Below, piece by piece: positions 19,039-41,244 of a stretch of DNA of 64,000 bases. The notes under the pieces were generated by a model, which made no database searches, was not told where the DNA came from, and saw only the letters and a list, made by a program, of their open reading frames with translations. Location: the IMG/VR virus record IMGVR_UViG_3300003177_000010, positions 1 through 64,000 of that record; one strand, given 5' to 3'. The stretch is from a virus. Position 1 is the first letter of the stretch. Every line of letters begins with the position of its first letter. The position numbers and the translations under genes are program-made.

Positions 19039-19359
19039 TCATTTTCTAAACTCCAAATAATTATTTAAATACATTTCTATATTTTTCTTACCAATAGGGT
19101 TTTGGCTATGAACATAAAAAGTAAAATCTTTAGGTATATTATAAAAACCTTCTGCCATATCTAATTCTACAAGCCACTTAGCAATATCATAACCAGTAGG
19201 CTCTTGTTTACCCAAATCATGGTCGAAAGATATAAAAGTAGGTAGGCTATTAAAATACAGTATATATTCTGCTACCTCTTTCTTATTTCTTGCAATTAAA
19301 GTATTTAAGTCATACTTAGCAGGCATTCTTTCATCATCTAAGAATAGTTTCCAGTTCAT
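19039..19359 (-). CDS. Cyclic-phosphate-processing receiver-domain protein
   Basis: LFLDDER, ISFDHDLG, TGYD, HSQNP.G. Confidence 0.8.
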   Translation of the reverse strand: MNWKLFLDDERMPAKYDLNTLIARNKKEVAEYILYFNSLPTFISFDHDLGKQEPTGYDIAKWLVELDMAEGFYNIPKDFTFYVHSQNPIGKKNIEMYLNNYLEFRK

Positions 19360-19786
19360 TAATAGTATCCTTTGTATTTTTATGTAATATAAAAGTACCA
19401 CCTACAGTTTCCCAAGAGTACCTGGCGCTAGCTCTATCATCAATTAGTACGTCACCTTCTTGACAATACTTATACTTCTCATAAGACCAGCAAGTTATAA
19501 CTTTAGTATTAATACCTAAATGTTTTTTACACCATTTTATTTTTTGTACTTCTGCCCCCTTACCTCTAGGCACTCCTGTTAGTATTATAGGGTGGTACTT
19601 CTTGATACTTGACCACAATTCCTCTCCGTCAATAGTCCAAGGCAACTCTGTAAAAAAATTAGGATACTTATGTAGTGTACTCCATAAGGTACTAGGTTCT
19701 ATGTCGTTAGGCTTTTTACCGAAAATACTAAAAATACGACTATTAAAGTCAGCTAACACACCATCTAGGTCACAGTATATTTTCAA
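19334..19786 (-). CDS. HAD 5'-nucleotidase-like
   Basis: DLDGVLADF, K..W, LIDDR. Confidence 0.85.
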   Translation of the reverse strand: MKIYCDLDGVLADFNSRIFSIFGKKPNDIEPSTLWSTLHKYPNFFTELPWTIDGEELWSSIKKYHPIILTGVPRGKGAEVQKIKWCKKHLGINTKVITCWSYEKYKYCQEGDVLIDDRASARYSWETVGGTFILHKNTKDTINELETILR

Positions 19787-24211: not shown

Positions 24212-25570
24212 TTACTTTTTGTGCTTCTGCAGCCATGGTTTATATATTTCTCCTGCCCTCATAGAACCTAGGGGCTCTATTTCATCTACTATATGTGCTA
24301 ACTTATAGTCTTTAATTTGTTTACAAACTTCTTTTGCACTCTTGTATGCTCCAGGTAGCTCTGATATATCTGCAGTTCCTGTATAAAAACGACAGTCAAT
24401 GTCCTTAGGTACTAACTCTTCATAAGTCTTACTAATATTATCTTTTTTGGACTGCGTTCTAGAAATATTTCTGCCAGCACCATGCGGAGCAAAACCATAA
24501 GTGTTATCTATATGATGCGTAACTATCAATATAGGCTCCCCCATATTTAAAGGTATAATACGCCTATCTTCCGCCCACTTGTTAAATGTAGGTGTAGCTC
24601 CTTTAGCATGGTGGAAAATATCACCATCTTTAAACACAAAGTTATGCTCGTTCCAAAAGCGGTCTGTGATACTCGGATTATTTAGCTCATGCAATACTTC
24701 TGAATGTACTACAAAGTGGTTAAGTTTAGTCCAAGCTCTTATAATCTGTAGAGCTTCCCAATAATTCTTGCCTTCCTCAGTCTCATAAGGAATCCATGCG
24801 TTCTGTTTTAAGGTATTAGAGGAATATTTAATCCTAAATTCTTCTGCAGCTTTCATTCCTTTTTTATACAATAAGGCTCCAGGTTTTCTAGACCCGTGAT
24901 GAGTAACTAAAGTGATTCTACCTGTGCTTTTAGATCTACCTACAAAGAAAAAGTGGTTACCATCTCCTTGAGTACCTAGATAATCATACATAGCTTGTAT
25001 AATAGTAGTATCATTTAAAAATTTATTATTTCGTGCTCTAGCTATTATTTTATTATTCATAGGTATCTTAATAGCTCTACCTCCTGGGCCAAAGTGCGAG
25101 CGCTTTTGAACTGCGTTCAATATAGTAGCAACATCTATTTCATCTTTAATCTCAGTTAAGTATAAAGAGCAACAAATATTAGAACTATGCATACCTGGGT
25201 GAATAGCATTTTTTGCACTAATTACACCCCCTACTGGTATAGTCCCTACAGGGCCTGAAGGGCAAGCATCAGGCATTACAGAAGCTTTAACTACAGTAGG
25301 AGTAAGAGTAGCTACCTTCATAGTCTCTACTACCGCTTTATAATTAGCTTTTTCATATTTTGTAGTACCTTTATCAAGATTTACTTTAAAAAATGAAGAA
25401 GTTTTCAATGGAATTGAGCGGTCCTTAGTAGCTTCTTTATATCTCCAAGCTAGGCCTTCCATTAAGTCAGTAGTCCTACCTGGTTTATTAGCATAACTTA
25501 ATAATTCCGAGAACCAAGGACCTGGTTTAAAGCCCCAATCAATTAGGTCTTTTCCTGTTATTTTTTCCAA
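24212..25570 (-). CDS. rtcB: RtcB-family RNA ligase
   Basis: MPDAC, IPVGG, GTQGDGNHF, HHGSR, HN, HAKGAT, HGAGR, ELPGAYK. Confidence 0.93.
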   Translation of the reverse strand: MEKITGKDLIDWGFKPGPWFSELLSYANKPGRTTDLMEGLAWRYKEATKDRSIPLKTSSFFKVNLDKGTTKYEKANYKAVVETMKVATLTPTVVKASVMPDACPSGPVGTIPVGGVISAKNAIHPGMHSSNICCSLYLTEIKDEIDVATILNAVQKRSHFGPGGRAIKIPMNNKIIARARNNKFLNDTTIIQAMYDYLGTQGDGNHFFFVGRSKSTGRITLVTHHGSRKPGALLYKKGMKAAEEFRIKYSSNTLKQNAWIPYETEEGKNYWEALQIIRAWTKLNHFVVHSEVLHELNNPSITDRFWNEHNFVFKDGDIFHHAKGATPTFNKWAEDRRIIPLNMGEPILIVTHHIDNTYGFAPHGAGRNISRTQSKKDNISKTYEELVPKDIDCRFYTGTADISELPGAYKSAKEVCKQIKDYKLAHIVDEIEPLGSMRAGEIYKPWLQKHKK

Positions 25571-26183: not shown

Positions 26184-26840
26184 TTATAGGCTATTTACAA
26201 TATCTCTATAAACTTCTTCTACAAAATTATAAGCTTTATTCATATCTACAGAGGAAGGTAACACAGATTTTTCTTTAGCATAATTGCACACTTTTTCCAT
26301 ATGCACAACTTCTTTATCTAGCTCTGCTACAGCAAATTCTCCATTTTTCACTTTAATAAGTATCTCCCTATCTGGTTTACTAATAGGAAAGGTTAAAGTA
26401 CCTGACTTATGTAATTCTTCTAACAGTAATAAGGAGCGCAATTTATGGTAATAATCTTTATAGGTTTTAGTATTAAGATTAAAAGCCATCCCGGTAAAAC
26501 CACTTAGACTACTAGTTAATAGTGATAAACCCACAGCCCTAGCTTTTACCCATAGAATTGTTTCATACTCTGCTGATGCAAATAGCATCTCAATACTTTG
26601 CGGTTTACCCCTCCTAATATCTTCAAAAAATCTTAGTAAGCTAACAGTACTAATATCTTCATCATTTTTAGTATTTTTACCTATAGTTGCAGGAGAATAT
26701 CTAATATGATGTTTCTGACAATCTAGTAAAATTTCTGATTTACTAGGCAGATGAACTCCGTTCATATCTGTATCTGACTCTGGAGTATCTGTACCGTATA
26801 ACTTAGAACCACTATAGCATTTAAAAATAATAGTCATCAT
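26184..26840 (-). CDS. Pol-beta-superfamily nucleotidyltransferase (RlaP/YcgL-like)
   Basis: GSKLYGTDTPESDTD, P..IEMLF, H.LR, S.LP. Confidence 0.85.
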   Translation of the reverse strand: MMTIIFKCYSGSKLYGTDTPESDTDMNGVHLPSKSEILLDCQKHHIRYSPATIGKNTKNDEDISTVSLLRFFEDIRRGKPQSIEMLFASAEYETILWVKARAVGLSLLTSSLSGFTGMAFNLNTKTYKDYYHKLRSLLLLEELHKSGTLTFPISKPDREILIKVKNGEFAVAELDKEVVHMEKVCNYAKEKSVLPSSVDMNKAYNFVEEVYRDIVNSL

Positions 26841-26983
26841 ATATAACCCTAAGTTGTTTTTCTTTTCTCTAATACTTTTATTCTGCTGTGATACTTCGTA
26901 TTATAATGTATTTTAGCTTCTTTATTTATTACATATACTAATACATTAGGGCAATATTTTAATATATAAACTGTACTAAGGAT

Positions 26984-27250
26984 TTACTCTGTATGCGCAT
27001 CTAAAAATTCTTTTATTACATCCCCATGGCAGGCCAAAGGCGCACACCAGCATTCTAAATCGTGCCCAGTTAATTCAGCTATAGCAGCTTTTTGTAGCTC
27101 TTCATTATTGTAGAAATATTCTTTATACTGCTGAATAACTTGTGTTCTATTACCATCAATACCAATAGAAAAAGGGTTACCAAATTTACTTGGTCGCCCT
27201 ATATAGGTTGCATTATCGCAGTTATCTTTTTTATGTACTACTTCAACCAT
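26984..27250 (-). CDS. DUF4326 protein
   Basis: YIGRPSKFGNPF, L.CWCAPLACHGD. Confidence 0.85.
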   Translation of the reverse strand: MVEVVHKKDNCDNATYIGRPSKFGNPFSIGIDGNRTQVIQQYKEYFYNNEELQKAAIAELTGHDLECWCAPLACHGDVIKEFLDAHTE

Positions 27251-27426
27251 TTGTCAATCTTTTCACAATATTGTGTAGCTACTTTTTTAGCGTAATTACT
27301 AGATAAAGTTTCGTAGTCTCCTACAGTCCAGTCATCTATCATATCGAACTTATGAGGAAAATCATTAGGTAGCCTAGCAAGCTGTTCTAATAGCATAAGT
27401 TACTTTAATAATATTCTTTCAAAAAA

Positions 27427-27512
27427 TGGAGGAAGGTAGAGTAATCGAAACCCGAACCCTTGCGGGTTCCCCGAGGGTTCAAACCTCGTTTGGCACCTTG
27501 CCGGTACCTTCC
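27427..27512 (-). tRNA. tRNA-Ser(UGA), 8/4 fold
   Basis: 8-bp acceptor GGAAGGTA/TACCTTCC, 4-bp T stem, long V arm, CCA. Confidence 0.85.
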
Positions 27513-27740
27513 TTAATATGGATCCTCCAAAATACCGTCTATACTCACTTTTTATCAGGAGCTTATCCCCTCAATCAGAGTAACACCCTTTAGGTGATTG
27601 TCTCATGTATTTCAGATGTATTTGTTATTATAATAGAAGCTACCTACATATCAACTTATCTATCAAGAATACTACTATATTAGTTATAAGGCCCTAATAG
27701 TATACTTGATAAACTTAAAGGACGGCAATACACGTCCACC

Positions 27741-27788
27741 CCTGTGACGCTTTTTAGCGTTTCGTCCCTTAAGGACTCCTCAGACAGG
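27741..27788 (-). ncRNA. Type I hammerhead ribozyme
   Basis: CCTGT-CTGAGGA-GTCC(TTAAG)GGAC-GAA-ACGCT(AAAA)AGCGT-C-ACAGG: full catalytic core with three paired stems. Confidence 0.9.
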
Positions 27789-27793
27789 TTATT

Positions 27794-27869
27794 TGGTGAA
27801 CCGATTGGGATTCGAACCCAAGTCCCATGATTAAAAGTCATGTGCTAAAACCTACTCAGCTACCGGTCC
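27794..27869 (-). tRNA. tRNA-Lys(UUU)
   Basis: Cloverleaf, CATGA-CTTTTAA-TCATG, CCA. Confidence 0.95.
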
Positions 27870-27989
27870 TTTATATATTTAATGGCACAGGAAGTACTAG
27901 CATACTTATCTCTTACACCGTAGTCTCGCTGCTAGACTAAACTACCATTGTGCTATCCTTACGGTCATCCGCCGAAGGACCATTAAATT

Positions 27990-28072
27990 TGGTACGGATG
28001 GAGGGACTCGAACCCTCACGCACTAGGCAGGAAATTTTAAGTCTCCCGTGTCTACCATTCCACCACATCCGC
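27990..28072 (-). tRNA. tRNA-Leu(UAA)
   Basis: Cloverleaf with V arm, CCA. Confidence 0.95.
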
Positions 28073-28427
28073 AATTAGGGCCGCCCTATATATACCGAAT
28101 CCTCCAGTATATATTATTTAAGGTAGCAGCGACGGCCACAGTACCCGATTACTTTTACTAATAAGTATACCTGCGTGAAAAGTACAAACATACAAGTACT
28201 AATATAACGTAACTGGTCCCCAGTTTTCATTTAGTATTTGGAATACTAAATCCAGTATCTCTTCACCGTTAAGTAATTAAAATTACTTAAAAAGCTAATT
28301 TACCGTATGTGCGGTGTGTGAGGCGGGTTTCTCACCTTACGTTATACAAAACAATTTATATAAACTCGGACTATACCCGAGACGTATAGCATTACAAATG
28401 CTAAATTTTACGATATAAACTGTATCT

Positions 28428-28504
28428 TGGTAGTCCCACCTGGACTCGAACCAGGACTCAAAGCGTTATGAGCGCCCTACTTTAACCGATTAAGCTATGG
28501 GACT
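28428..28504 (-). tRNA. tRNA-Ile2(CAU, lysidine type), copy 1
   Basis: CAT anticodon, C4:G69/C5:G68, ileX-like body. Confidence 0.85.
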
Positions 28505-28683
28505 AAACTTTTAATCTTTATCGCAGTCTGGTTTATGTGGAGCATTTCGGCTAAAACACATGCCAAAAGCTACTGCTAAAACAGTGACACTTAGAATTAC
28601 TAGAATATTAATCATAATTATTTCCTTTTTCTTTTCCGTATAATCTATTATAACGCAAAAATAAGCGTTAAGCAAGTTTAATA

Positions 28684-29154
28684 TTAAAGTATGTTCTTAT
28701 CTAACTCAGTGTCTTCAATCGAAGTACCATTAGCAATTTGCTCTCTAACTCTATCTTTATACGAAATAAAACTACCATCAATAGAGCGTTTGCAATTATC
28801 TTCCATCCAAGCAATATCTGCTTCTAGGTCTACATCTGGCCATATATCTGATAAGTGACATAATTCTTGCATCTTATCTTTAGAAGGAGCTTCTGCATAA
28901 CATATAGCTAGCACTTTCTTACGGTACTCAGTATACCTAGCTAACTGTGCTAGTAGCTTACCCTCATTACTATAACTATTATATAATTTGTCTCTTTTAT
29001 TCCTATAAGTAAGAGAAGCTCTAACCTTATCTACTGTAGCCTCAGGTCCTAAAATTACAGATAAGTAATCTGCCCCTTTGGATATAGCTACTTTTTTAAG
29101 CATCTGGCCCATTTTGGTACTCTGATTAGAATTAACCTTTTTATTAAATGACAC
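28684..29154 (-). CDS. Hypothetical protein
   Basis: 156-aa ORF with GTG start. Confidence 0.6.
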   Translation of the reverse strand: MSFNKKVNSNQSTKMGQMLKKVAISKGADYLSVILGPEATVDKVRASLTYRNKRDKLYNSYSNEGKLLAQLARYTEYRKKVLAICYAEAPSKDKMQELCHLSDIWPDVDLEADIAWMEDNCKRSIDGSFISYKDRVREQIANGTSIEDTELDKNIL

Positions 29155-29285
29155 CCTAACAGACGATCTTAATGGGTATTTTTCCAGTTACCTGAAAAGC
29201 AGGGTCTCTGGTTTGGTGTCGCTACTACAGACCCTTTTTCGCTCTGTATAAACTATAATAACATTAGAATAAGCGTTAAGCAATT

Positions 29286-29300
29286 TTAAACTTCGTTTAA
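29286..29300. repeat. Palindromic element TTAAAC-GAA-GTTTAA next to a -35 box; copies or variants also at 30290, 30651, 30944, 33742, 36391, 36562, 36778, 36816, 43627, 13992
   Basis: Direct comparison of copies. Confidence 0.9.
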
Positions 29301-29605
29301 AGGCTTCCATAGCTTAGCAAATTTTAATACGTTAGGTAAATCTTTAGCAGGTAGTGGTATAGCACAAGAAGTTTTACCCTCTAAAGTACTGCTTTCATGA
29401 CCTAAGTATACATGATCTAAGTCACTAATTTTGGTAAACTCTTTTTTTTACTCTAACTACACATTTTTTTAAAACTAGTAGTTAGCCATTCTTTATATTT
29501 TTCGTCATCTTTAAATAATAAATGTGTGCCTAATACTGCATGAGCTACTAGAGTAGGAGTCATGTAGTCTGGAAAATCATCTAATACTGCAATATATAGT
29601 TTCAT
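29286..29605 (-). pseudogene. Pth2-like peptidyl-tRNA hydrolase with two A-tract frameshifts
   Basis: MKLYIAV...LVAHAVL...WL..SFKK / CVVRV / EF...LKFAKLWKPLNEV* in three frames. Confidence 0.6.
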
Positions 29606-29618
29606 TTATGGGTCTATG

Positions 29619-29690
29619 TGGTAGAGTTACTTGGAATCGAACCAAGCCTAAGTAGATATGAGCCACTCGTCAGAACCGTTCTGTAACTCC
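29619..29690 (-). tRNA. tRNA-Met(CAU), atypical D arm
   Basis: AGTGG-CTCATAT-CTACT, TTCGATT loop, CCA. Confidence 0.75.
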
Positions 29691-29697
29691 GCTAATT

Positions 29698-29771
29698 TGG
29701 TAGCCCTAAAAAGAATTGAACTTATATCTAACAGTTATCAACTGCTTGCTCTACCATTGAGCTATAGGGCC
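29698..29771 (-). tRNA. tRNA-Ile(GAU)
   Basis: Cloverleaf, weak T stem, CCA. Confidence 0.85.
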
Positions 29772-30047
29772 ATTAATGACAAGGAAATCCAACAGAATGG
29801 CGGGTATCATGTTCGAAATCGTGTATATAACTAGAGCTGTAAAACCCAGTAAAAAATATTAAGAATACCCCAAATAAAGCAATAGATACTATTTCTAATA
29901 TAGAGGTATCAACTCTTTGTTTTACTTGTATCATAATATTATACGCTCTTTCAAAAAATATTTGGAAATAATTTTTTGCAGTTATTGGAAAGGTTGCAGC
30001 CTTGTTTTTATTTTACTTTATCATTCCAGATAAAGGGGTCGGATTCT

Positions 30048-30122
30048 TGGTACTAGATAGAGGATTTGAACCTCGCCCTCAAGGTTCACAGTCTCGCGTA
30101 CTACCTCTACACCATATCTAGC
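30048..30122 (-). tRNA. tRNA-His(GUG), 8/4 fold, A73, no G-1
   Basis: GCTAGATA/TATCTAGT acceptor, GAGG/CCTC T stem. Confidence 0.85.
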
Positions 30123-30317
30123 ATATATATTTATAACCTGTATAATCTTAATGCGTGCGACTTACATAACATAGAAAGGAAAAGAATGTTAACGCGCTAA
30201 TTAGTAACTCCTACTGTACTTTCAACAATATCTCGCTGGTTAAGGAGGGCTTTGCATCATGAATTTAAGCTAAGGAGGCGACTTACATATTAAACGAAGT
30301 TTAATAACGCGGGAAAC

Positions 30318-30392
30318 TGGTACTGGATATTAGATTTGAACTAATGCCCTGACGCGTGTAAAACGCCTGCTCTACCACTGAGCTAATCCAGC
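30318..30392 (-). tRNA. tRNA-Val(UAC)
   Basis: Cloverleaf, CCA. Confidence 0.9.
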
Positions 30393-30400
30393 AAGACATA

Positions 30401-30581
30401 GTTATAAGAAAGTTATATAGACAACTCATAACTACTGCAGGCAATGATTACTGCTATTATCCATCGGGCTACGCAGATGACACGGATATTCTTTTACGCA
30501 CATTTTTATTCTGCTGTCGGCTGATTTACTCCAGATCATCTGCAGTCTACATTACAAGATTTTATATAAGTTCTATACAAC
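30401..30581 (-). ncRNA. Unassigned structured RNA (long terminal stem plus multibranch loop)
   Basis: Inverted repeats; upstream promoter at about 30620-30650; no ORF. Confidence 0.5.
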
Positions 30582-30777
30582 TTTGTTTATTACTTATAAT
30601 GTAAATTCTCTTATAAACTATAATAACACTTATTTTAGCGTTAGGCAAGTTTAAACTTCATTTAATAAAATCTCTGTTATAATAAAACAATCCCCGGAGG
30701 CTCCGTTGTATTAACCAGAAAAAATATGTCTTAGTCACCACATTGTCCCGGCAACAGAGACTCATATTAAAGTTTAT

Positions 30778-30908
30778 TATAAAGAAAATAACCCCATTAC
30801 ATACTACGTATGCTTGCTGAACCATTACGCCACGGTTCTAGAGCTTTTGTTTTGCTACGCTGGGTAATGCTCTATTACCCTATGGCCACTTGAGTTATTC
30901 TCTTTATA
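30778..30908 (-). ncRNA. Unassigned structured RNA
   Basis: About 17-bp terminal stem enclosing hairpins; starts at a promoter +1. Confidence 0.55.
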
Positions 30909-30964
30909 AACTATATTAACATTTATTTTAGCGTTAGGCAAGTTTAAATTTCATTTAATATCTG

Positions 30965-31405
30965 TTATCTCATTGCATTTAAAATATTGTTATAATTACC
31001 ATTCAAATCTATAGAATCATATTCCAGTCTATTATTACACACGTCGCAGAGTCCGTATTTCGCAGCAAAATCCATACATGATGTTTGCTTACCGCAGCAC
31101 TCGCATTTTTCTCCATATGCCCCATAACCATATGTATCAGCATTAAACTGATTTTTTGCTAATTTACTTTCAGGAAATATACGATTAGTGTTTCTATTCT
31201 CATCAAAATCATAGTATTTATCATGAATAATAGTTGATTTAATTAAATTTTGACTTAATGACATTATATCAAACAAATTTCTTCTTAAAACATTCGAATT
31301 ACTTTCGTATTTTTGACGATAATCTCTGCGATCATTCCACTCAGTAAAACCTATTGTAGGTTTATGAAAAGAACCTCGCAGAGTTTTATCATTTTCAGGC
31401 GTCAC
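30965..31405 (-). CDS. Hypothetical protein with C-terminal Zn finger (CECCG...CDVC)
   Basis: ORF. Confidence 0.65.
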   Translation of the reverse strand: MTPENDKTLRGSFHKPTIGFTEWNDRRDYRQKYESNSNVLRRNLFDIMSLSQNLIKSTIIHDKYYDFDENRNTNRIFPESKLAKNQFNADTYGYGAYGEKCECCGKQTSCMDFAAKYGLCDVCNNRLEYDSIDLNGNYNNILNAMR

Positions 31406-32162
31406 TTGAGAACCAAGATTTTACCTTTGACATAAATGTTACCTTTTTATTCTTGGCCAGATCTGTGTAAGAAATATTCTTAATTGTTTCAACCTCAATA
31501 AGAGATTCTGAAACAATTCGATTAATGTTATCAATATCTACGCTAATTTTCTTGCCTGGTTTTTCGATGCCAATTTCTCGCATTCTATCAAGCATTTTTG
31601 TAAATGTCAAATCACAGAATTCATCTTCCCAATCTGTGATAAAATACATTCGATCGTGTTTTAAATTAATTTTCTCGTTCAAAAACATACCAAAAACGAT
31701 TGGATCTCTGTTACGGGCGACAAAACTTTTCTGTTCAGGAGTATTGACTTCTTCATCCGTAAAATCTGTATAGATAACAACTAAAAGATCAAAGATTTCA
31801 AGATTACGAGCTTTTTCAATATCTTCTACGTTCATATCAGGAATAACACGAGGAAAGTTTTCAAGCTCAATAATTTTTACAGAATTTTTTGGTGTAATTG
31901 AATCAATAAGTCTAACAACATCTTGGCGATATACAAAATCTTCATATCCTAGAGAGTTAAGAATCATTTCTTTTTCAAGAATTTGCCACATATAAGCTGA
32001 TTTATGGGAGAGATTTTTCTGACCAAGACGTTCCGCCTTTTGAATTTCTTTACCAAGAAATGCCATATTATCTTCAAGCTTTTTATATTCCATTTTGTTG
32101 ATTTTAGTTTTCAACTCAGCGAAATAATCCTTTGGCTCTGTAATATTATCATCTTCTATCAT
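31395..32162 (-). CDS. Conserved hypothetical phage protein
   Basis: VKIIELENFPR.IP, RDPIVFG, YFI.DWEDEFCDLT; AGGAG SD. Confidence 0.75.
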   Translation of the reverse strand: MIEDDNITEPKDYFAELKTKINKMEYKKLEDNMAFLGKEIQKAERLGQKNLSHKSAYMWQILEKEMILNSLGYEDFVYRQDVVRLIDSITPKNSVKIIELENFPRVIPDMNVEDIEKARNLEIFDLLVVIYTDFTDEEVNTPEQKSFVARNRDPIVFGMFLNEKINLKHDRMYFITDWEDEFCDLTFTKMLDRMREIGIEKPGKKISVDIDNINRIVSESLIEVETIKNISYTDLAKNKKVTFMSKVKSWFSSDA

Positions 32163-32202
32163 GTTATCTCTCCTGTTAACTATAGAATAATAATTATAAT
32201 AA

Positions 32203-32535
32203 AGTAGACCCGTTTGGTAATACGGTGGAGTCTATACCGCAAAAAGGATTAGGCAACTAGTGCATAATCTTTAGGTGCTATGTTATCGTTTGCATTTACG
32301 AGTTTTGAGCCGATGTGGTGTGCTCATCCAGTAATCTCCACTTTATCCCCAATGTCATTCGATCCTATTTCGACCCCATTATAAGTATATCAGTTTCAGG
32401 GTTCGAACCCTCTTACGGCCTAAATAAACTGTTATAATCACCAATGGCCACTGTACACTCAGTGTCAATATACTTATGGTGGAGTCGCTGGGTACTGCCC
32501 CCAGGTCATGTCCATTTTTGTATTGTTTCATCAAT
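32203..32535 (-). ncRNA. ssrA: Two-piece (circularly permuted) tmRNA; tag ANDNIAPKDYALVA*
   Basis: Acceptor piece ends CGACTCCACCA (32477); coding piece starts GGGGTCG (32377); G3:U70; GGCAGTA T-loop; tag frame 32293-32249; outer ends approximate. Confidence 0.93.
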
Positions 32536-32776
32536 TACTAGGTGTCTTTAAGGCGCATCCCATTCCTATTAATTTCGTCTTTATACTAAACCGGAGAACC
32601 GGCCTCAGAATAACTAACTCCGAATCTTCACCCTATGAAGGTGATGTAATTTCACATCTCTAACAATGTCAGTCATTAGATTAGTAGGTGGCACTAGTTA
32701 GATAGTATAGCTACCTACTAATTAAGTAAGAACAAGTGCAAAGGCACCTTCGTGGGCTAAGCCTAATAATTCTTAC

Positions 32777-33250
32777 TTAAAAATCTTCATAGTACAATAT
32801 AGGTTTATTAAAAGCATCCATATATTGCTTCATAACATCAGATAAATCTTCATCTTCAGTAGCTACTGGCGCTACTGGCTCTTCTGTACAAGCTGTAGGA
32901 ATACCTCCTACAGAATATACTTCGTGTATACCTGTTTGATATTCTCCGTCACCTAATGATTTAGTAACACGGCGATAAGACCAAGTAGGCTCATGATGCT
33001 TTACAGTACCTTTACTAATGGTAAATAAAGTTCTACCTTCGTTATTTAAAATTACATAGCCGCCTGTTTTATTATAATGAATTACTCCATCAATATTACA
33101 AGTATTAGCATCAGTACTGGTTATGCCTACTACTTCATTATTAAGTAAAGCACCGAAAGTACATGTAACACTTCGATATTTCTCCTGTATAGTAATAGTG
33201 CAGTCAGTATAATTTACTACTTCTATACATTTACCTAATAGACTTCTCAT
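32777..33250 (-). CDS. Hypothetical protein
   Basis: ORF; WSYR...IHEVY C-terminal domain. Confidence 0.65.
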   Translation of the reverse strand: MRSLLGKCIEVVNYTDCTITIQEKYRSVTCTFGALLNNEVVGITSTDANTCNIDGVIHYNKTGGYVILNNEGRTLFTISKGTVKHHEPTWSYRRVTKSLGDGEYQTGIHEVYSVGGIPTACTEEPVAPVATEDEDLSDVMKQYMDAFNKPILYYEDF

Positions 33251-33540
33251 TTTGTTTTCCTGTATTTAGGTTCAATTTTTTCGTAAGTTTTGGGAAAAAA
33301 GCGTGTATAAGACTCTTTTGTAGTTACTTGTAAAAGACCTTGCTCATCGCATAATGTACATGGTTCTTTATAGGTCTCTGTTTGAAAATCATGATAATTA
33401 ATTACCTTTTCTTTTTCAATAAAACCTATACCGCCACAGTTATTACACAACTTATCCTCTACAGTAGTACGTATATATACAGATATATCACCATATAGAC
33501 CTATAATATATTCGTCTGCTGGTAGCTCTTTTACAACCAT
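33247..33540 (-). CDS. DnaJ-type Zn-finger small protein
   Basis: CNNCGGIG...CTLCDEQG. Confidence 0.6.
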   Translation of the reverse strand: MVVKELPADEYIIGLYGDISVYIRTTVEDKLCNNCGGIGFIEKEKVINYHDFQTETYKEPCTLCDEQGLLQVTTKESYTRFFPKTYEKIEPKYRKTK

Positions 33541-33616
33541 TATATTCCTTTCTTAAGAGTAATATAGATATTATTCCATTATTGGCACTCTATTTTATTT
33601 TGTTCTACGCACTAAT

Positions 33617-33692
33617 TGGTTGCGGGAGTAGGACTCGAACCTACGACCTCTTGGTTATGAGCCAAGCTAGCTGCCGCTGCTAACATCCCGCA
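33617..33692 (-). tRNA. tRNA-fMet(CAU), initiator-like
   Basis: TGCGGGA/TCCCGCA-ACCA, CTCATAA loop. Confidence 0.85.
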
Positions 33693-33869
33693 TTAATTTC
33701 TTTATACTCCAATGTAATACTAAAATAAGCGTTAGGCAATTTTAAACTTCGTTTAATAAGTACTTCAGCTATAAATAAGCCCTACTACAAAGTCATTTTA
33801 GTGACAGCTCACGTCATCCATATATAGCACCTGCAGACACTATGTACATTTTGTAGTAGGACTTAACTT

Positions 33870-33954
33870 TGGTGGAAGAGTGTCGAGTCGAACGACACGC
33901 TATTACACTCCGGTTTTACAGACCTTCTGCGGATACCCTCCGCTGAACTCTTCC
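33870..33954 (-). tRNA. tRNA-Tyr(GUA), atypical
   Basis: CTGTAAA loop, V arm, CCA; weak anticodon stem. Confidence 0.75.
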
Positions 33955-34205
33955 ATTATTTCTTATAGGATAAAGGACGTTACTTCCTTTTGACTCTCCT
34001 TTACGCTATTCAACGAAGTTGAATAATAACACGTCTATAAGCCTGCCACGGAGATCTCTTATAGTTGGCGGTCACTTAACTCTAAGTAAGTAATCCTATA
34101 AAAATAAGCAGTTATCACTCTACTCGTAAATACTACTAAAAAATAATAAATCTTGTAGTAACTGCTCCGATATACTGTAGATTTTTTTGATCGGTTTATG
34201 ACTGT

Positions 34206-34403
34206 CTACGAACCGGAAGTCATTTTTAGTATATCGTTTAATTGTTCTTTACTATGTATAGCTGCTTGAATTGCTATATCAAAATCTTTAGCATTTTTAG
34301 TATTACATAAGCAATAAAAAACTACGTTTTTATGTAACCCGCTGGAAATAGCATTTCCTAAGGCAGAAGCCATAATGTCATAATCAGAAATATCTTTATA
34401 CAT
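34206..34403 (-). CDS. Hypothetical protein
   Basis: ORF. Confidence 0.5.
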   Translation of the reverse strand: MYKDISDYDIMASALGNAISSGLHKNVVFYCLCNTKNAKDFDIAIQAAIHSKEQLNDILKMTSGS

Positions 34404-34671
34404 ATTGATACTTAATAGTGCTTAGGACTAATATACGTAGAATTATTTGCTGTAATTCTAAAGGAAAGTCAGCTGGTTTACCCTCTAAATAATTAATAAT
34501 CCTTGTTACAGACTTCTCATACCTTAATAATTCTTTTCTCTTTTTTCTATCTTCACATTTCTGAGAGCTACTCGCAAAATACTTTCTTTGCTCTTTGAAA
34601 TACGCAATATCTGTGTAGCTATAGCTACTAGCTAAATCCATTCTTAGTACTTTAGGTATATTATAGCGCAT
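34396..34671 (-). CDS. Hypothetical protein
   Basis: ORF. Confidence 0.55.
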   Translation of the reverse strand: MRYNIPKVLRMDLASSYSYTDIAYFKEQRKYFASSSQKCEDRKKRKELLRYEKSVTRIINYLEGKPADFPLELQQIILRILVLSTIKYQYV

Positions 34672-34947
34672 TATTTAATAATCTCTGCTGCGATACATAC
34701 ACCTCTAACTTGTGTTGGCTCTAACTGTGTGAGAGCTGCTTGACACGCTTCAAAGCTGTCTAGTTTCACTGTAGTTATTCCGTTATGGGATATAAATAAC
34801 ACCAGAATATAAGCACCTGCAGTATTAATCATTATGTTTCTTCTAAAAAATTAAATGCCTGAGAACCTCTTCATCTCTCACATTGTTCTGTAATTAAATA
34901 GCTATCAGGTAAGCACTATAAACCACTAAATTTATACTTGTATTATG

Positions 34948-35023
34948 TGGCGAAACTGAAGGGGATTGAACCCTCGACCTCCTACGTGACAGGCAGGCGC
35001 TCTAACCACTGAGCTACAGTTCC
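34948..35023 (-). tRNA. tRNA-Asp(GUC)
   Basis: Canonical cloverleaf, G73, CCA. Confidence 0.95.
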
Positions 35024-35114
35024 AAAAAATTGCTACAGCAGATGTTAATTAGGGCCACCTTACGAATTTGAACCACGAAACATTCCACTCATTTTGCTCT
35101 ACTCGATAATTAGT

Positions 35115-35192
35115 TGGTCCTGCCGACGAGATTCGAACTCGCATTGGTCTCATTGAAAGTGAGGGTTCCTAGTCCAATTAGAAGACGGCAGG
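35115..35192 (-). tRNA. tRNA-Glu(UUC)
   Basis: Cloverleaf, CCA. Confidence 0.9.
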
Positions 35193-35650
35193 ATATACTT
35201 ATGCTAGCTAGACACATATTTAACTAGTAATTTCTTACTGCTACAGGCATTAGGTAGTTGACACGGAGTGTCACGGCGCAACATTTAAGGGTATCCATAT
35301 ACACAAACAGAAGTATTATCGAGAGTGAGAATTGAGCCTAATATCTCTGTACTGTTATTAGGCCAATCCGCACAACGCATTAATTCATAGGCTATTACTT
35401 ATAAAAGCTGCTGTATACAAATTTAAAGCATTGCTGCTACCTAATTTTTACCTTTAAACTATTACTCTCCAATAATAGTGCTAACGTACTTAGTTAAAGT
35501 AGTAATTAGGCGCTGTTATTCCTTATACAGTAGGATTGAGTATTCTTTATCTTTACAGCTTATATCGGTTCAGGGGATACTATCCTAATAGCTACGTATA
35601 ACTAAAAGCATAAAGAAATGAGTATCTTCATTTAATTACGACCTGAATGT

Positions 35651-35727
<77 letters not shown>

Positions 35728-36005
35728 AATGAGTTAGGTTCTACTGCGAGACAGCGACTTAGCCAAACCTACGCGTTTGGTTCCATGAATTCGTATAGCT
35801 ACTATAATTTCTAGAGTTAGTAGCTATTTGAGGTATTGAATAGTTAATCCTGTAGTGTATACCGCACACTTTTATATTTAATTATTAAGGTTCAATAAAC
35901 ATAATAAACAAACCTACGATCACTCCCGCAATAGAGATTATATGATATAGTTCACATAACAAAACTATGTACCGTATTGAGTAACTATCTCAATTTAGTA
36001 TATTT

Positions 36006-36082
36006 TGGTAGTCCCACCTGGACTCGAACCAGGACTCAAAGCGTTATGAGCGCCCTACTTTAACCGATTAAGCTATGGGACC
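36006..36082 (-). tRNA. tRNA-Ile2(CAU), copy 2
   Basis: Identical to 28428-28504 except position 1 (G vs A). Confidence 0.85.
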
Positions 36083-36407
36083 AAAGAATAGGCTAGTAGT
36101 AATGAATATTCCCTACTAAGTTTCCTGCGGTCGGAGATTTGTATAATTTAGACCGCAACCATTAATTTGGAATAGCATGAGATTGATTAATTCTCTTATA
36201 CAGGAACGCTATTAATGCCTAGATAAGTATGTATGGAACACCTAACTTCTCCCTCTGTATACAATGCTCTACAGTTAGCAAATTTATTATCTCAGTTTAT
36301 TCTGCGTCTGGTTCCTACGAGTTAATCATTCTCGCCTCCCAAATCCCTCTTTATAACCCATTATAATATAAAAATAGGCTATAAACAAGAATAAACTTCG
36401 TTTAAAA

Positions 36408-36489
36408 TGGTAGAAGGCATAACCGACCCTATAAGGTTATCCGGTTTTCGTAGAGTTAGTCATACATCACTGAAATGACTTGCCTTCTA
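36408..36489 (-). ncRNA. tRNA-like RNA ending in CCA
   Basis: 9-bp TAGAAGGCA/TGCCTTCTA stem plus CCA, two internal hairpins, own promoter. Confidence 0.5.
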
Positions 36490-36606
36490 TTAAAAAATTT
36501 ATTTTGTTAAATAACTTTTCTTTATAATCCAATATAACGCAAAAATAAGCGTTAAGCAAGTTTAAATTTCGTTCAAAATATGATCTGTACCAGATTAAAT
36601 TGAACT

Positions 36607-36741
36607 TTATTAGCGAGAGTAAGATTCGATACTTACATTCTGAGTAGTCTCAGGCTTAACTTAGGGGATCTCGCTAATAACTATCGAAAGTAAGAATCGA
36701 GCTTACATTGCCTATAACAATTCATTCATCTGATTTCGATA
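36607..36741 (-). ncRNA. Two tandem mini tRNA-like RNAs (acceptor-like stem plus T-arm mimic)
   Basis: GTAAG-CTCGATT-CTTAC and GTAAG-TATCGAAT-CTTAC stacked on 8- and 12-bp stems. Confidence 0.55.
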
Positions 36742-36815
36742 TAACTAATATAACATTTAAAAAAGCGTTTAGCAATTTTAAACTTCGTTTAAAATATGAA
36801 CTGTACCAGTTTAAA

Positions 36816-37409
36816 TTAAACTTCGTTTAAAATCTTCTTTCTAACAACTTTATGTAATCCAGGATTTACTAGTAAGGCTCTAGGAAGAATTTCATGTCTA
36901 ATAAAATTACGCATATACTTAGTATCTTGATTAGATTTATCTTCTACCCAATTTACGTCGCGTTTATTGCACCAACGAATAAACTCTTCTTTTTTATTAA
37001 GTCTAAAAGGTCTAATAACATTCCTATTAGCATAAGGAATGATATTCCCTTTTCCGTGTAGGCTGCTAAAAAGCCATTGCTCTACACAATCATCTAAATG
37101 GTGTCCAGTAATTACTGGAGTATCAAAACTATGAAAAATAGAATATCTCTCATTTCTCCAATGCTCCTCTTGGCTTACTCCGATAGGAACTGTAGTATTG
37201 ATGCTAAAGACGTGTAAAGCAAGGTCGTTATTTTCAGCGTAAGTGGTGACAAACGTTTCTGCAATAGAACTTGTTTCGGTCCCATGATTTATAAATACTA
37301 AATTAACAGTATGATTATTCTTAAGAAAATCTACAATAGCTACACTATCTACACCGCCGCTAAATGCGACAGTTACTTCTCTTGGTAATTTCCCTTGAAT
37401 AGCAATCAT
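36816..37409 (-). CDS. tilS: tRNA(Ile)-lysidine synthetase (catalytic domain only)
   Basis: SGGVDS, INHG, R.ERY, GHHLDD, IRPF, ED.SN, RNFIRH. Confidence 0.92.
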   Translation of the reverse strand: MIAIQGKLPREVTVAFSGGVDSVAIVDFLKNNHTVNLVFINHGTETSSIAETFVTTYAENNDLALHVFSINTTVPIGVSQEEHWRNERYSIFHSFDTPVITGHHLDDCVEQWLFSSLHGKGNIIPYANRNVIRPFRLNKKEEFIRWCNKRDVNWVEDKSNQDTKYMRNFIRHEILPRALLVNPGLHKVVRKKILNEV

Positions 37410-37467
37410 TGTTTCTTCCTCTCTATAATTAAATATACATTATAAAAAAGAATTAAGCAACTATATT

Positions 37468-38049
37468 TTAAAAAGCACAGGCATATAAAAGATCTAAAGA
37501 TTCTTTTTCTTTTTGTACTGTTTCTATAGACTTAATGGGTATATTAAACTCATTATAACCAAGTTTAGCTACATCTATATCAAAAAATTTTAAGGCTTTT
37601 ACATAATCATTATATACCATCCCATTTACTAGGTCTACCTCAATGTGCTTAATATTATAGTTAGTATCTAATAAAGCACAAAGAGGTAAGTCATCAATTA
37701 TTAAAAATTTATCATCTTCTTCGGCATTATCCTCTATCCACCACAGTATTTCATGTGATCTTTTTGAGGATTTACTTTTAGGTGTTAATGCTACACGCGC
37801 ATAATCAAAACGTAGTCCACATTTATATAGTAAATCTTTTAGTTTTTTCTCTTCTAAAAACCAAGACCAGTTAGTAGAAAGTACAATTTTAGCATCTGCA
37901 TAATCAGCAATTAGATTATGTAAACGAACTGCAAAAGGGTCAAAAGTAGGTAAACCTTTTTTAGTTTTATGGAATTTATAGTTTTCTTGTAAAAAATTCA
38001 ATTTAGCAGGTAACAGAGGCCCGTCAATATCTACAAATATATAATTCAT
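37468..38049 (-). CDS. HAD phosphatase (RNA-repair Swiss-army-knife type)
   Basis: FVDIDG, IVLSTNW, R..EI..W, IIDD. Confidence 0.75.
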   Translation of the reverse strand: MNYIFVDIDGPLLPAKLNFLQENYKFHKTKKGLPTFDPFAVRLHNLIADYADAKIVLSTNWSWFLEEKKLKDLLYKCGLRFDYARVALTPKSKSSKRSHEILWWIEDNAEEDDKFLIIDDLPLCALLDTNYNIKHIEVDLVNGMVYNDYVKALKFFDIDVAKLGYNEFNIPIKSIETVQKEKESLDLLYACAF

Positions 38050-38050
38050 T

Positions 38051-38506
38051 TTAATTCCTCAAAAAAGTTAAAGCTTCAAGATAGTTATTATAAGACAGAC
38101 CGTCTATTAAGTCTGCTTTTATATTTTTAATGTTACTTTGTGGGAAATTCAGTAGTAAATCATCAATTACTAGAATTTTGTCTTCTGAGGTACAGTTAAC
38201 ATCTATCCACTGTTGTATTTCCTTAACTCTATTACCTACTTTATTAGTAACAGAGCTACTAGCGTAAGTAAAATTAAAGCCGCAATTATATAGTATATTT
38301 TTTATCTCATATTCAGAAAAGTAATTAGTCCAATTTGTTGCTAATATTATCTTAGCTTTTTATGCTAGTTTATTATAAGCAAAAACTGCAAAAGGGTCAA
38401 ATGTAGGTAAACCTTTTTTAGTCTTGCGATACTTATAATTGTTACCTAGCCTACTAAATTTAACAGGCAATAACGGGCCATCAATATCTACAAATACATA
38501 GTTCAT
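38051..38506 (-). pseudogene. Tandem paralog of the HAD gene with an in-frame TAA at codon 49
   Basis: MNYVFVDIDGPLLP...YNKLA*KAKIILATNW...VIDD. Confidence 0.8.
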
Positions 38507-38796
38507 CTTAAGCTTTTATAAAATTTTGAAGTTTCTTCATAAGCGCTTTCACATTCTGTGCAAGGCTCTCCGTTTATTTCCCCATACCCACCATTACAAG
38601 TATTATTACCACATTTCCAACATATATGCATATAACGGTCACAATGTTTACAAAAGGTTAATTTATGCTTCTTATCTTTTGGTGCTATATGGTTACTAGT
38701 ATTGTAAGAAAAATCTAGAGTAGATATATCATAATCCCTAACTAACCTATAATAAATGCTCGGGACAGTGCTTTTTCCAATGTTATATTTCTGCAT
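38503..38796 (-). CDS. Cys-rich hypothetical protein
   Basis: CKHC...CWKCGNNTCNGG...CTEC. Confidence 0.6.
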   Translation of the reverse strand: MQKYNIGKSTVPSIYYRLVRDYDISTLDFSYNTSNHIAPKDKKHKLTFCKHCDRYMHICWKCGNNTCNGGYGEINGEPCTECESAYEETSKFYKSLR

Positions 38797-38940
38797 ATAC
38801 TATCTCTACAACTTTTTCGTAGTCGTTATAATCTGGCTTATCTAAGTGAAATTCTGGTATATAATTACTCATGTCTGTTCCCCAGTCTATTTTAGGGTAG
38901 CAAAGGTAAGCTTTTTTTTAACATAGTTAAATATCCTTAT

Positions 38941-39015
38941 TGGTGCTCCAGTCAGGAATCAAACCTGCTTCTCCGACTTACAAGATCGGGCATCATTCTT
39001 AAATGTTTCAAGAGC
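38941..39015 (-). tRNA. tRNA-Thr(UGU), divergent
   Basis: CCGAT-CTTGTAA-GTCGG, CCA; acceptor mismatch. Confidence 0.7.
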
Positions 39016-39019
39016 GTTG

Positions 39020-39436
39020 TTAGGTATATAGCGCTACAGCATATTCTATTTTATTGAAGGTGTTAAGTTTAGCTAAAGTATCTTCTATAAACCATTTATC
39101 TGCTATTTCGTCAAAAAATACTGCATTAATTTTACCTTTTGGTATTGTATAGCCTCTTTTTTCCCTACCTACCATTACTACTTTATCGTGTAAAATAGGC
39201 GTAAAGTTTTTATTATACTTTGAGTATATAATAGGATATTTCTCAGTACAAGCTAAGGCGTTAATTAGGTAACTTTTTCCTACTTGTCTAGGTGTTTTCA
39301 TTATTAAAGTTTTATACTCTAATAAATAGCTATAACGTGATAGATATTCAGGGTTATCACGTAATTTACTATTTTTCATTTCCTCTATTAAAGCAAACAT
39401 ATATACTTGAAATTTATTATCCATTAAGTACCTCAT
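39020..39436 (-). CDS. Small P-loop NTPase-like protein
   Basis: TPRQVGKS (Walker A), VFFDE (Walker B); start moved downstream of tRNA-Gln. Confidence 0.6.
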   Translation of the reverse strand: MRYLMDNKFQVYMFALIEEMKNSKLRDNPEYLSRYSYLLEYKTLIMKTPRQVGKSYLINALACTEKYPIIYSKYNKNFTPILHDKVVMVGREKRGYTIPKGKINAVFFDEIADKWFIEDTLAKLNTFNKIEYAVALYT

Positions 39437-39438
39437 GC

Positions 39439-39513
39439 TGGTTGGAGAGGCAGGATTCGAACCTACGATCTTCTGAATCAAAGTCAGACGTCCTACCACT
39501 AGACCACTCTCCA
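39439..39513 (-). tRNA. tRNA-Gln(UUG)
   Basis: Cloverleaf, U1:A72, CCA. Confidence 0.93.
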
Positions 39514-39821
39514 AAAATTATTGGTAAGGGTACCATTCCACCACACCCTCAATAATTAATTGTTATTACTACCGAATAGAGTAGTCTGTTTAAATTTCTT
39601 CAAACCTACTTTATTAATTGTTTTTAGAAAAGCTTTATATAGTGCTTGTTGCATAATTATATTCCTATAAATAAAAATTGCTATGATTTATTAGATACAT
39701 AGCCTTAGTAACTTACAAACAGCAACCACGCTGTAAAATTACTAATTTGACCGGAGGCATAACTTTTAGCACGAAAGCACTGGTAATACTTTCTATAGTC
39801 AGTGGGCTTTACCGGAAGACC

Positions 39822-39903
39822 TGGCATAAGCGCGAGGAATCGAACCCCTTGCCAATACGTTTGGAAGGTAGCACCTATCCAGTAGATATTAGGCTGCGCT
39901 TAT
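39822..39903 (-). tRNA. Atypical 8/4 tRNA, probably Trp(CCA)
   Basis: ATAAGCGC/GCGCTTAT acceptor, G73, TTCCAAA loop, weak anticodon stem. Confidence 0.55.
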
Positions 39904-39908
39904 ATAAT

Positions 39909-39983
39909 TGGTGCTTATGGGTAGAATCGAACTACCTACTCGGGGGCCTTCAACTCCCAGCTCTACCAATGAGCTACATAAGC
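39909..39983 (-). tRNA. tRNA-Phe(GAA)
   Basis: Cloverleaf, CCA. Confidence 0.88.
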
Positions 39984-40095
39984 AAAATAACTACAACTGA
40001 TTACAGACTTTTACTGCTTTCTACATACTAACCAGACAGCAGATAGTATAAGTTTTCTAAATAAACAAAAGGTACTAGTTCTTTTGTTTATTTCT

Positions 40096-40170
40096 TGGCT
40101 CCCTAGAAAGGATTCGAACCTTTGATATACTAATTAACAATCAGTTGCCTTACCACTTGGCTACTAGGGA
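40096..40170 (-). tRNA. tRNA-Asn(GUU)
   Basis: Cloverleaf, CCA. Confidence 0.93.
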
Positions 40171-40220
40171 ATAATTTTATTGCCGAATTATTTGCACTAC
40201 AAGTTAGAGCAATACCTCTG

Positions 40221-40312
40221 TTTTTTAGCAATAGGATTTGCACCTATAAGTCCTGTCACAGACAACCGGATTTTACTCCAGTCACGTATACTAGTTCCGT
40301 CATACTAAAAAA
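40221..40312 (-). pseudogene. Degenerate tRNA-Leu-like gene
   Basis: Leu-type D arm, V arm, ATAGG-TGCAAAT-CCTAT; abnormal anticodon loop; no CCA. Confidence 0.55.
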
Positions 40313-40359
40313 TTCATTGGGTGCCTCAGCTTTACGTACGACACACCTACAACAGTTAC

Positions 40360-40435
40360 TGGCATCGGTGCAGGGATTCGAACCCTGGACTCATGGTTTT
40401 GGAGACCACTGCTCTGACCACTGAGCTACACCGAT
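40360..40435 (-). tRNA. tRNA-Trp(CCA)
   Basis: Canonical cloverleaf. Confidence 0.95.
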
Positions 40436-40439
40436 AAAT

Positions 40440-40515
40440 TGGTCAGAGTGGTGAGACTCGAACTCACGATCTCCGGAATCCAAGTCCGACGACTTACCAA
40501 CTAGCCTACACTCTG
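40440..40515 (-). tRNA. tRNA-Pro(UGG)
   Basis: Canonical cloverleaf. Confidence 0.95.
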
Positions 40516-40727
40516 CTATCAGCCGGAAATTCTTTTTACATGCAGCCGGATCTGCATATTATTTCTGTACTCTCGATAGAAATCAAACCTACGGTCTTCA
40601 CCTTATAAGAACAATGAGATGATACCTCGCTACAAAATAGTACCCTTGCTCCTTACCGTGGTGTACCGACTCTTTGGTGAGCACTCAGTAGCAATCTTTC
40701 GAAGGCGGGCATTTCTACTGATAATTT

Positions 40728-40800
40728 TGGTACTCTCGATAGGAATCGAACCTATACGTCAGCTTTCGTAGAGCCAAGTCCATTATCCATCGGCGAGAGT
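40728..40800 (-). tRNA. tRNA-Arg(ACG), atypical D arm
   Basis: CTACGAA loop, T arm, CCA. Confidence 0.8.
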
Positions 40801-40806
40801 ATAAAT

Positions 40807-40880
40807 TGGAGGTATAGATCAGATTTGAACTGATGTAACTGAGTTTGCAATCCAGCGCGTAGCCTCTCCGCCACTATACC
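40807..40880 (-). tRNA. tRNA-Cys(GCA)
   Basis: U73, CCA. Confidence 0.9.
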
Positions 40881-41215: not shown

Positions 41216-41244
41216 GTAGACTAGTTAAAATAAGTATATAATAC

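Follow-up and report, generated by a model that had tools for sequence, protein, structure and literature searches.

A type I hammerhead ribozyme motif directly behind a phage tRNA-Lys gene, and its recurrence in phage tRNA arrays

Introduction

What might a self-cleaving ribozyme do for a phage when it is encoded a few bases behind a tRNA gene, and which of the RNAs on its two sides would it serve? We address this question at a 48-nt hammerhead motif that can be read directly at positions 27788-27741 on the minus strand, the tRNA strand, of an uncultured 112,794-bp phage genome. The window that we analyzed is the first 64 kb (64,000 nt) of this genome, an IMG/VR virus record rated 100% complete by CheckV, and contains a minus-strand array of 20 tRNAs and a permuted tmRNA as called by ARAGORN. 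The same genome encodes the RNA ligase RtcB, and hammerhead products, which carry 2',3'-cyclic phosphate and 5'-OH ends, are RtcB substrates. This raises the further question of whether ribozyme and ligase act together.

A complete hammerhead core lies behind tRNA-Lys

The gene directly upstream of the ribozyme is tRNA-Lys(UUU) (27794..27869, minus strand, as are all parts of the site described here; ARAGORN, with 63.9 bits in the Rfam tRNA model), whose encoded CCA occupies 27796-27794. Direct reading places a 5-nt A/U spacer, AAUAA (27789..27793), between the CCA and the ribozyme, which then runs in type I order with stem I open: stem I 5' strand, core, hairpin II, GAAA, hairpin III, UC and stem I 3' strand. 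The three stems were each obtained by reading, folding and a descriptor scan. Stem I pairs CCUGU (27784..27788) with ACAGG (27741..27745), the latter being the predicted 5'-OH start of the downstream product. Stem II with its loop, GUCCUUAAGGGAC (27764..27776), has the form GUCC(U)-UAA-(G)GGAC with the closing pair G10.1-C11.1 formed, and stem III (27760-27747) reads A15.1-CGC-UAAAAA-GCG-U16.1. Between the stems lie the core C3-A9, CUGAGGA with G at N7 (27777..27783; reading, Rfam alignment and the R1 model described below), and G12, A13 and A14 (GAA, 27763-27761; direct reading). The cleavage triplet is GUC, and hammerhead numbering of the sequence assigns C17 to 27746, with the predicted scissile bond on its 3' side (27746/27745).

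All conserved positions (C3-A9, G12-A14, the A15.1-U16.1 pair and C17) were matched with zero deviations, both core-adjacent pairs, U2.1-A1.1 and G10.1-C11.1, were formed, and the stems measured 5/5/5 bp. The type I hammerhead that the original prediction placed on the tRNA strand was borne out in full, with every core base and three 5-bp stems, as was the placement of the cut between 27746 and 27745. The minimum-energy ViennaRNA fold of 58 nt was the expected three-way junction, with a stability modestly better than that of shuffles (z -1.69). As a sequence motif, the site is confirmed as a true type I hammerhead and belongs to the short-stem class found abundantly in phages. A 53-aa open reading frame at 27680-27841 overlaps the tRNA and was rejected as spurious.

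The predicted cut would separate two transcription units

Type I hammerheads cut near their own 3' ends, and the predicted cut here falls five bases from the 3' end of the ribozyme. Because of this geometry, the upstream product would keep the whole ribozyme, and the downstream RNA would receive a nearly clean 5'-OH end. A ribozyme of this type on the tRNA strand would naturally be read as one that cleaves the tRNA-array transcript in which it lies. We envisage a polymerase that reads from tRNA-Leu through tRNA-Lys into the ribozyme, whereupon the RNA would fold and cut itself after C17 (27746). The upstream product would be a tRNA precursor with a tail of ~48-53 nt, consisting of the spacer and the ribozyme and ending in a 2',3'-cyclic phosphate. 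Host RNases would then trim this tail from tRNA-Lys at the A/U spacer, which, judging from bacterial tRNA processing, is the likelier point for host endonucleases to finish the tRNA-Lys 3' end. The downstream product would begin 5'-HO-ACAGG, such that read-through RNA would be given a defined 5'-OH end.

That the site is transcribed across and cleaved, and that one of the two products benefits, we infer. The ribozyme would sit at the junction of two transcription units and sever read-through RNA between them, setting the tRNA-Leu/tRNA-Lys unit apart from a hairpin, a promoter region and the tRNA-Ser-like, RlaP and RtcB genes. The best explanation of the locus, which we consider reasonably probable, is that a phage hammerhead self-cuts the tRNA-cluster transcript and thereby uncouples the tRNA-Leu/tRNA-Lys unit from what lies downstream.

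Another reading would make the ribozyme a device that matures the 3' end of tRNA-Lys, in the manner of the HDV-like theta ribozymes behind phage tRNAs. It lies on the same strand, 5 nt behind the CCA, and theta (minimal HDV-like) ribozymes directly 3' of phage tRNAs are known (Kienbeck et al. 2024, PMC10879173; hammerheads are not mentioned in the main text of that paper). These are the closest parallel to the present arrangement, in that both are small self-cleaving ribozymes encoded right behind a phage tRNA and on its strand. However, the two belong to different families and act on other sides of the cut. HDV-like ribozymes, theta ribozymes among them, cleave at their own 5' edge, which liberates the tRNA 3' end directly, whereas the hammerhead here would cut ~48 nt beyond the CCA and free the downstream RNA. 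The release of tRNA-Lys that the original prediction had foreseen as one outcome is not what this geometry would give, as tRNA-Lys would retain the ribozyme as a structured, cyclic-phosphate-ended trailer and host RNases would still be needed. We also considered the site itself as a theta or HDV-like ribozyme and rejected this assignment: it had no HDV-family Rfam match, its fold and core are those of a hammerhead, and its predicted cut is ~48 nt from the CCA.

Hammerheads recur behind tRNAs in other phages

We ran two scans of IMG/VR for a tRNA T-arm closely followed by a hammerhead core, and filtered the results with the descriptor scanner and ARAGORN. Type I hammerheads were found 2 nt (contig L219) and 20 nt (L203) after the 3' end of tRNA-Gly, 6 nt after tRNA-Asp (L014/L043 and L205), 15 nt after tRNA-Arg (L206), 2 nt (L109) and 11 nt (L122) after tRNA-Trp, 11 nt after tRNA-Glu (L210) and 7 nt after tRNA-Leu (L215), and a metagenome scan added a marine contig family in which the hammerhead lies 3 nt behind tRNA-Met. 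The arrangement, with type I hammerheads 2-20 nt behind tRNAs, recurs in unrelated phage contigs. In a less biased IMG/VR sample with stem I unconstrained, about 1 in 10 hammerheads, by a rough count, lay within 400 nt of a same-strand tRNA.

Such recurrent placement speaks for a role in tRNA 3'-end maturation, but in several of these loci the hammerhead accompanies the RNA that follows it. For example, in L121 (1432-1508, plus strand) the hammerhead occupies the entire gap between tRNA-Gln and tRNA-His, with stem I made of GCCAUC, which includes the CCA, and GGUGGC, and the predicted cut falls exactly before G-1 of tRNA-His. To judge from its sequence, this ribozyme would generate the mature 5'-OH end of tRNA-His with no need for RNase P; another hammerhead follows at 1635-1686, 56 nt after tRNA-His. 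Tandem hammerhead-tRNA-Tyr units are found in L030 (6478-6529 and 6628-6678, plus strand) and also in L029 (8394-8447). In L030, the stem I 3' strand of the second ribozyme is formed by the first 5 nt of an ARAGORN-called tRNA-Tyr, and a similar tRNA-like start (AGUAGCAGCGUAAUUGGUAG), uncalled by ARAGORN, comes after the first ribozyme. At both loci the stem I 3' strand is the start of a tRNA, tRNA-His in L121 and tRNA-Tyr in L030, and the cut would therefore make the 5' end of the downstream RNA.

In a group of marine and estuarine metagenome contigs (L224, L225, L228, L230-L232, L234 and L235), tRNA-Met with its CCA is followed by UUU and a hammerhead (AGCAUGU...ACAUGCU), then by a conserved RNA starting UCUGACCUUUGGAACGGUG, and then by tRNA-Arg. 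Two further contigs, L226 and L233, have the same hammerhead and downstream RNA without an upstream tRNA, and in L233 they come directly after a promoter-like TTGACA-17-TAATAT site. A related RNA (ACCUUGUGGUGUA ... GGCAUCCAAAG.AAAACCAC) lies downstream of the hammerhead in L014, L054, L109, L112 and L113. This related RNA matched no Rfam family at E up to 0.5. The tRNA 5' ends of L121 and L030, together with the loci that lack an upstream tRNA (L226 and L233), argue that the ribozyme serves what follows and not the tRNA in front. In other phages it thus appears to go with the downstream RNA, and at the tRNA-Lys site either side may benefit. Given these loci and the long trailer that a cut at the ribozyme's own 3' end would leave, we regard maturation of the tRNA-Lys 3' end as an unlikely function.

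The tRNA-Lys site shares with the tRNA-array hammerheads of L121, L030, L109, L014, L224 and others the type I topology and a start 2-20 nt after the tRNA 3' end; stem I in these contigs measures 5-7 bp. It differs from L121 and L030, whose ribozymes would create the 5' end of the next tRNA, and from L109, L014, L224 and others, where the hammerhead precedes a conserved RNA beginning ...ACCUU..GGUG, whereas the window has a hairpin and a promoter-like region at this place. In the literature that we searched there was no description of hammerheads behind phage tRNAs, the nearest cases being prophage hammerheads that flank protein genes and the theta ribozymes. The tRNA-array setting is recurrent and apparently undescribed, while the ribozyme class itself is known. 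Hammerheads that repeatedly lie a few bases from tRNA genes suggest a concrete and testable role, namely RNA-only cutting of tRNA-array transcripts. From such positions they could set where the next RNA begins, in some cases at the precise 5' end of a tRNA.

The 153-kb phage with a hammerhead 11 nt after tRNA-Trp (L122) also carries a GOLLD RNA in the same tRNA array (6432-6889, minus strand; 200 bits in Rfam). A pseudoknot could form in its hammerhead by pairing of loop II (UCCCUU) with an AAGGGA that lies shortly before stem I.

Terminator-like and promoter-like signals follow the ribozyme

The original prediction also placed a structured RNA of about 230 nt between the ribozyme and tRNA-Ser. 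The 233 nt that separate the cut from the tRNA-Ser-like gene folded no better than shuffles (z -1.2) and matched no Rfam family, and a terminator-like hairpin and a promoter match were found there instead, all on the minus strand. The hairpin, GGACG-N8-CGUCC followed by UUUAAGUUUA (27720..27737), begins 3 nt past the ribozyme; it was found by a consensus scan, and its function as a terminator is putative. The promoter-like site, TTGATA-16-TATAAT (27627..27654), agrees with the sigma-70-type consensus at 11/12 positions, a consensus match only, and faces the tRNA-Ser-like and RlaP/RtcB genes. Its -10 region resembles the repeated promoter cassettes of this phage. We also compared the stretch after the ribozyme with the TTAAAC-GAA-GTTTAA cassette and rejected it as a copy, the likeness being loose only. 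Downstream of the ribozyme, the nearest RNA gene (27427..27512, minus strand) resembles tRNA-Ser(UGA). Its acceptor stem is 8 bp long and its D loop 3 nt, and it has a CCA; it was recognized by eye, its fold shows the 8-bp closing stem (z -3.2), and it is called neither by ARAGORN nor by the Rfam tRNA model.

Since conserved structured RNAs follow the tRNA-array hammerheads of L014, L054, L109, L112, L113, L224 and others, the hammerhead here could likewise head a functional non-coding RNA that spans the 233 nt before the tRNA-Ser-like gene, or else an extended leader of tRNA-Ser. However, the RNA family that trails the hammerheads of other phages is absent from this genome (nhmmer), and the 233 nt, besides having neither unusual stability nor an Rfam family, contain the terminator-like and promoter-like signals, all of which makes this alternative improbable in our judgment. 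When the ribozyme was compared together with its downstream flank to cultured phages by blastn, only weak, irrelevant matches were returned. For the reading that we prefer, uncoupling of the tRNA-Leu/tRNA-Lys unit, the same signals set a condition: if termination at 27737-27720 were efficient, or if most downstream RNA came from the promoter-like site at 27654-27627, the cut would be of little consequence.

Two other structured elements flank the site on the minus strand. An A/U-rich inverted repeat of ~19 bp seen in folds (27660..27709) lies just upstream of the promoter-like site, which it abuts, and may serve as an operator or as a structure at a transcript end. Between tRNA-Leu and tRNA-Lys, a 120-nt spacer (27870-27989) contains several hairpins and has a weak, chance-level Rfam match, with no family.

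The motif is rare by chance and fits a phage ribozyme class

A further possibility is that the site arose as a chance match, or that it is the decaying remnant of a ribozyme that has lost cleavage. The descriptor scan, which covered types I, II and III, returned a single site in the whole 112,794-bp genome, namely 27788-27741 with stems of 5/5/5 bp. Applied to 47 Mb of sequence simulated from a first-order Markov model of the genome, the same scan gave 27 matches at the loosest thresholds, 2 at 5/4/4 bp and 0 at 5/5/5 bp, so that by this simulation fewer than ~0.007 motifs of the 5/5/5-bp kind are expected by chance per genome. Moreover, only ~0.3% of genome positions fall within 25 nt downstream of a tRNA on the same strand. 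With these two values, the joint odds of the motif and its tRNA placement are small, even allowing for the size of the scan.

The original prediction had proposed a search with the Rfam covariance model, and its outcome was mixed. Hammerhead_1 (RF00163) aligned end to end with the site at an E of 2.5e-4 for the genome, but the score of 22.7 bits lies under the gathering score of 34, which is the curators' cut-off and not a structural feature. Five clear hammerheads of other phage tRNA arrays scored 24.1-33.9 bits and likewise missed this cut-off, and a sub-threshold Rfam score is therefore uninformative on its own. We also built a covariance model, R1, from 57 diverse phage type I hammerheads with the window's copy left out. 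When it was run on the window with filters off, the site scored 47.5 bits (E about 1e-12 by a rough calibration) and the runner-up 10.1 bits, values that are partly circular, as are the pairing statistics of the training set, because most training members were retrieved with a pattern that the site also fits and were kept only if their stems paired.

Non-circular support comes from stem I. In IMG/VR, a pattern without a stem I constraint gave 98 distinct matches, 86 of which had at least 5 contiguous stem I base pairs (mode 6), where chance would give ~0.7%. A 5-bp open stem I is therefore normal for the phage class, a large natural group in which short open stems I prevail, as in the present copy.

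Among phage and prophage type I hammerheads (RF00163, clan CL00010), those that flank prophage genes have been shown to cut polycistronic transcripts both in vitro and inside E. coli (Perreault et al. 2011, PMC3088659). The tRNA-Lys site has in common with them the core, the three-stem junction, the short open stem I, a GUCC/GGAC stem II, the GUC triplet and an intergenic position in what would be a polycistronic phage transcript. In contrast to the present site, a single copy 5 nt behind a tRNA, those hammerheads flank protein-coding genes and often occur in several copies. Many IMG/VR contigs (L004, L005, L040, L049 and others) carry 4-6 type I hammerheads each, with near-identical stem I (e.g., GGUUAA/UUAACC), which matches the arrangement described for prophages; the descriptor scan counted 205 hammerheads in the fetched loci.

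A second difference from the prophage hammerheads concerns tertiary structure. Contacts between stem I and loop II make natural hammerheads fast at cellular Mg2+. At the tRNA-Lys site we recognized no such contact, whether loop-loop or pseudoknot, and pairing of loop II (UUAAG) with the flanks was limited to 3-4 A-U pairs. Folding of tRNA-Lys with its flank showed that stem I can be extended by 7 bp across a 6-nt bulge, GUUCACC (27801-27795) pairing with GGUGGAC (27740-27734). The former strand is the 3' strand of the tRNA-Lys acceptor stem with A73 and CC, and the extension would compete with both the acceptor stem and the hairpin at 27737-27720. This pairing came to light post hoc, ~8% being expected by chance when loop sizes are left free, and was not seen by eye in the other tRNA-adjacent hammerheads that we inspected.

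Searches for relatives of the locus covered cultured phages, IMG/VR, metagenome contigs and genome contigs, and found none that carries tRNA-Lys with the hammerhead. Megablast of 26500-29500 against cultured phages gave no match, the exact tRNA-Lys anticodon-arm/T-arm pattern had 0 matches in IMG/VR, and a hammerhead pattern with the stem I of this site had 0 matches in metagenome contigs and 0 in genome contigs; a looser stem I pattern matched 13 metagenome contigs, all from other families. No syntenic tRNA-Lys(UUU) and hammerhead were present at RtcB loci, and RlaP found no relative in IMG/VR. The DNA polymerase had a single relative (76% identity), which lies on a 15-kb fragment remote from tRNA arrays. 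In a large protein collection, RlaP matched only an identical protein, on 2 contigs. The longer of these is 125,992 bp, which compared with the 112,794 bp of our record means that the record may be incomplete or that a near-identical phage exists.

A chance match or a relic would thus be in keeping with the lack of a homologous locus that could show selection, with the unrecognized tertiary contact, and with a single copy of sub-threshold Rfam score. However, the rarity of the motif, its placement near a tRNA, a core that is consensus at all positions and the fit of this placement to a recurrent class make either quite unlikely.

No association between hammerheads and RtcB in the phage records surveyed

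The neighbors named in the original prediction are present: the RtcB ligase gene, about 2 kb away, occupies 24212..25570 (minus strand; Pfam PF01139, E 1.3e-31; taken here as context only), and the cyclic-phosphate protein at 19.0 kb is encoded by a cREC_REC cyclic-phosphate receiver-domain gene at 19039-19401. The further step, a link to RtcB with possible re-ligation, found no such support. We found no credible hammerhead in 80 phage loci around RtcB relatives (within 6 kb; 985 kb) and no hammerhead in five whole RtcB-encoding phage records. Conversely, RtcB was absent from five phage records that have a hammerhead next to a tRNA; two of these records are 100% complete. Coupling of the hammerhead to RtcB thus fails every association test that we ran, and the tRNA-Lys copy, one clean instance of a tRNA-array hammerhead, serves as a negative control for the idea that phage ribozymes and RtcB cooperate.

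The layout of the locus points the same way. The tRNA-array region (27000-41500) contained no other ribozyme family at E up to 1, and with a single hammerhead in the genome, excision by two cuts followed by circularization would have no second cutter, and no RNA would have both ends. In vitro, RtcB circularizes hammerhead-processed retrozyme RNAs (PMC7229834), and such systems of hammerhead and tRNA ligase, which make the circular RNAs of retrozymes and viroids, resemble the phage locus in their end chemistry and in having a ligase able to join the ends. Unlike the phage locus, which has one ribozyme, no repeat and no RtcB co-occurrence, they need two cuts per unit or tandem repeats.

A broader and more speculative reading, which we consider very doubtful, would take tRNA-array hammerheads as an undescribed processing layer independent of host RNases, some of them making tRNA 5' ends (tRNA-His including G-1 in L121, tRNA-Tyr in L030). 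At tRNA-Lys, this layer would yield a deliberate cyclic-phosphate-ended precursor, or a 5'-OH RNA handled or sensed by the RtcB/RlaP/cREC module. That the hammerhead ends are meant for the phage RtcB, for re-ligation, circularization or signaling to a cyclic-phosphate-sensing module, is suggested by end chemistry that suits RtcB, by the retrozyme precedent and by RtcB, RlaP and cREC_REC genes within 9 kb, but it is highly improbable given the missing co-occurrence in either direction, the abundance of RtcB in phages without hammerheads, the single ribozyme, and the fact that resealing the same junction would merely restore the ribozyme's substrate.

RtcB is common in phages, occurring in 310 INPHARED records of cultured phages. 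Together with RlaP, it is better explained as part of the usual phage kit that repairs tRNAs cut by host nucleases, the role ordinarily assigned to both proteins in phages (Iyer et al. 2021, PMC7824862). In the present genome, the RlaP-family gene lies at 26184-26840, and a metallophosphoesterase gene is also present alongside those for RtcB, RlaP and cREC_REC.
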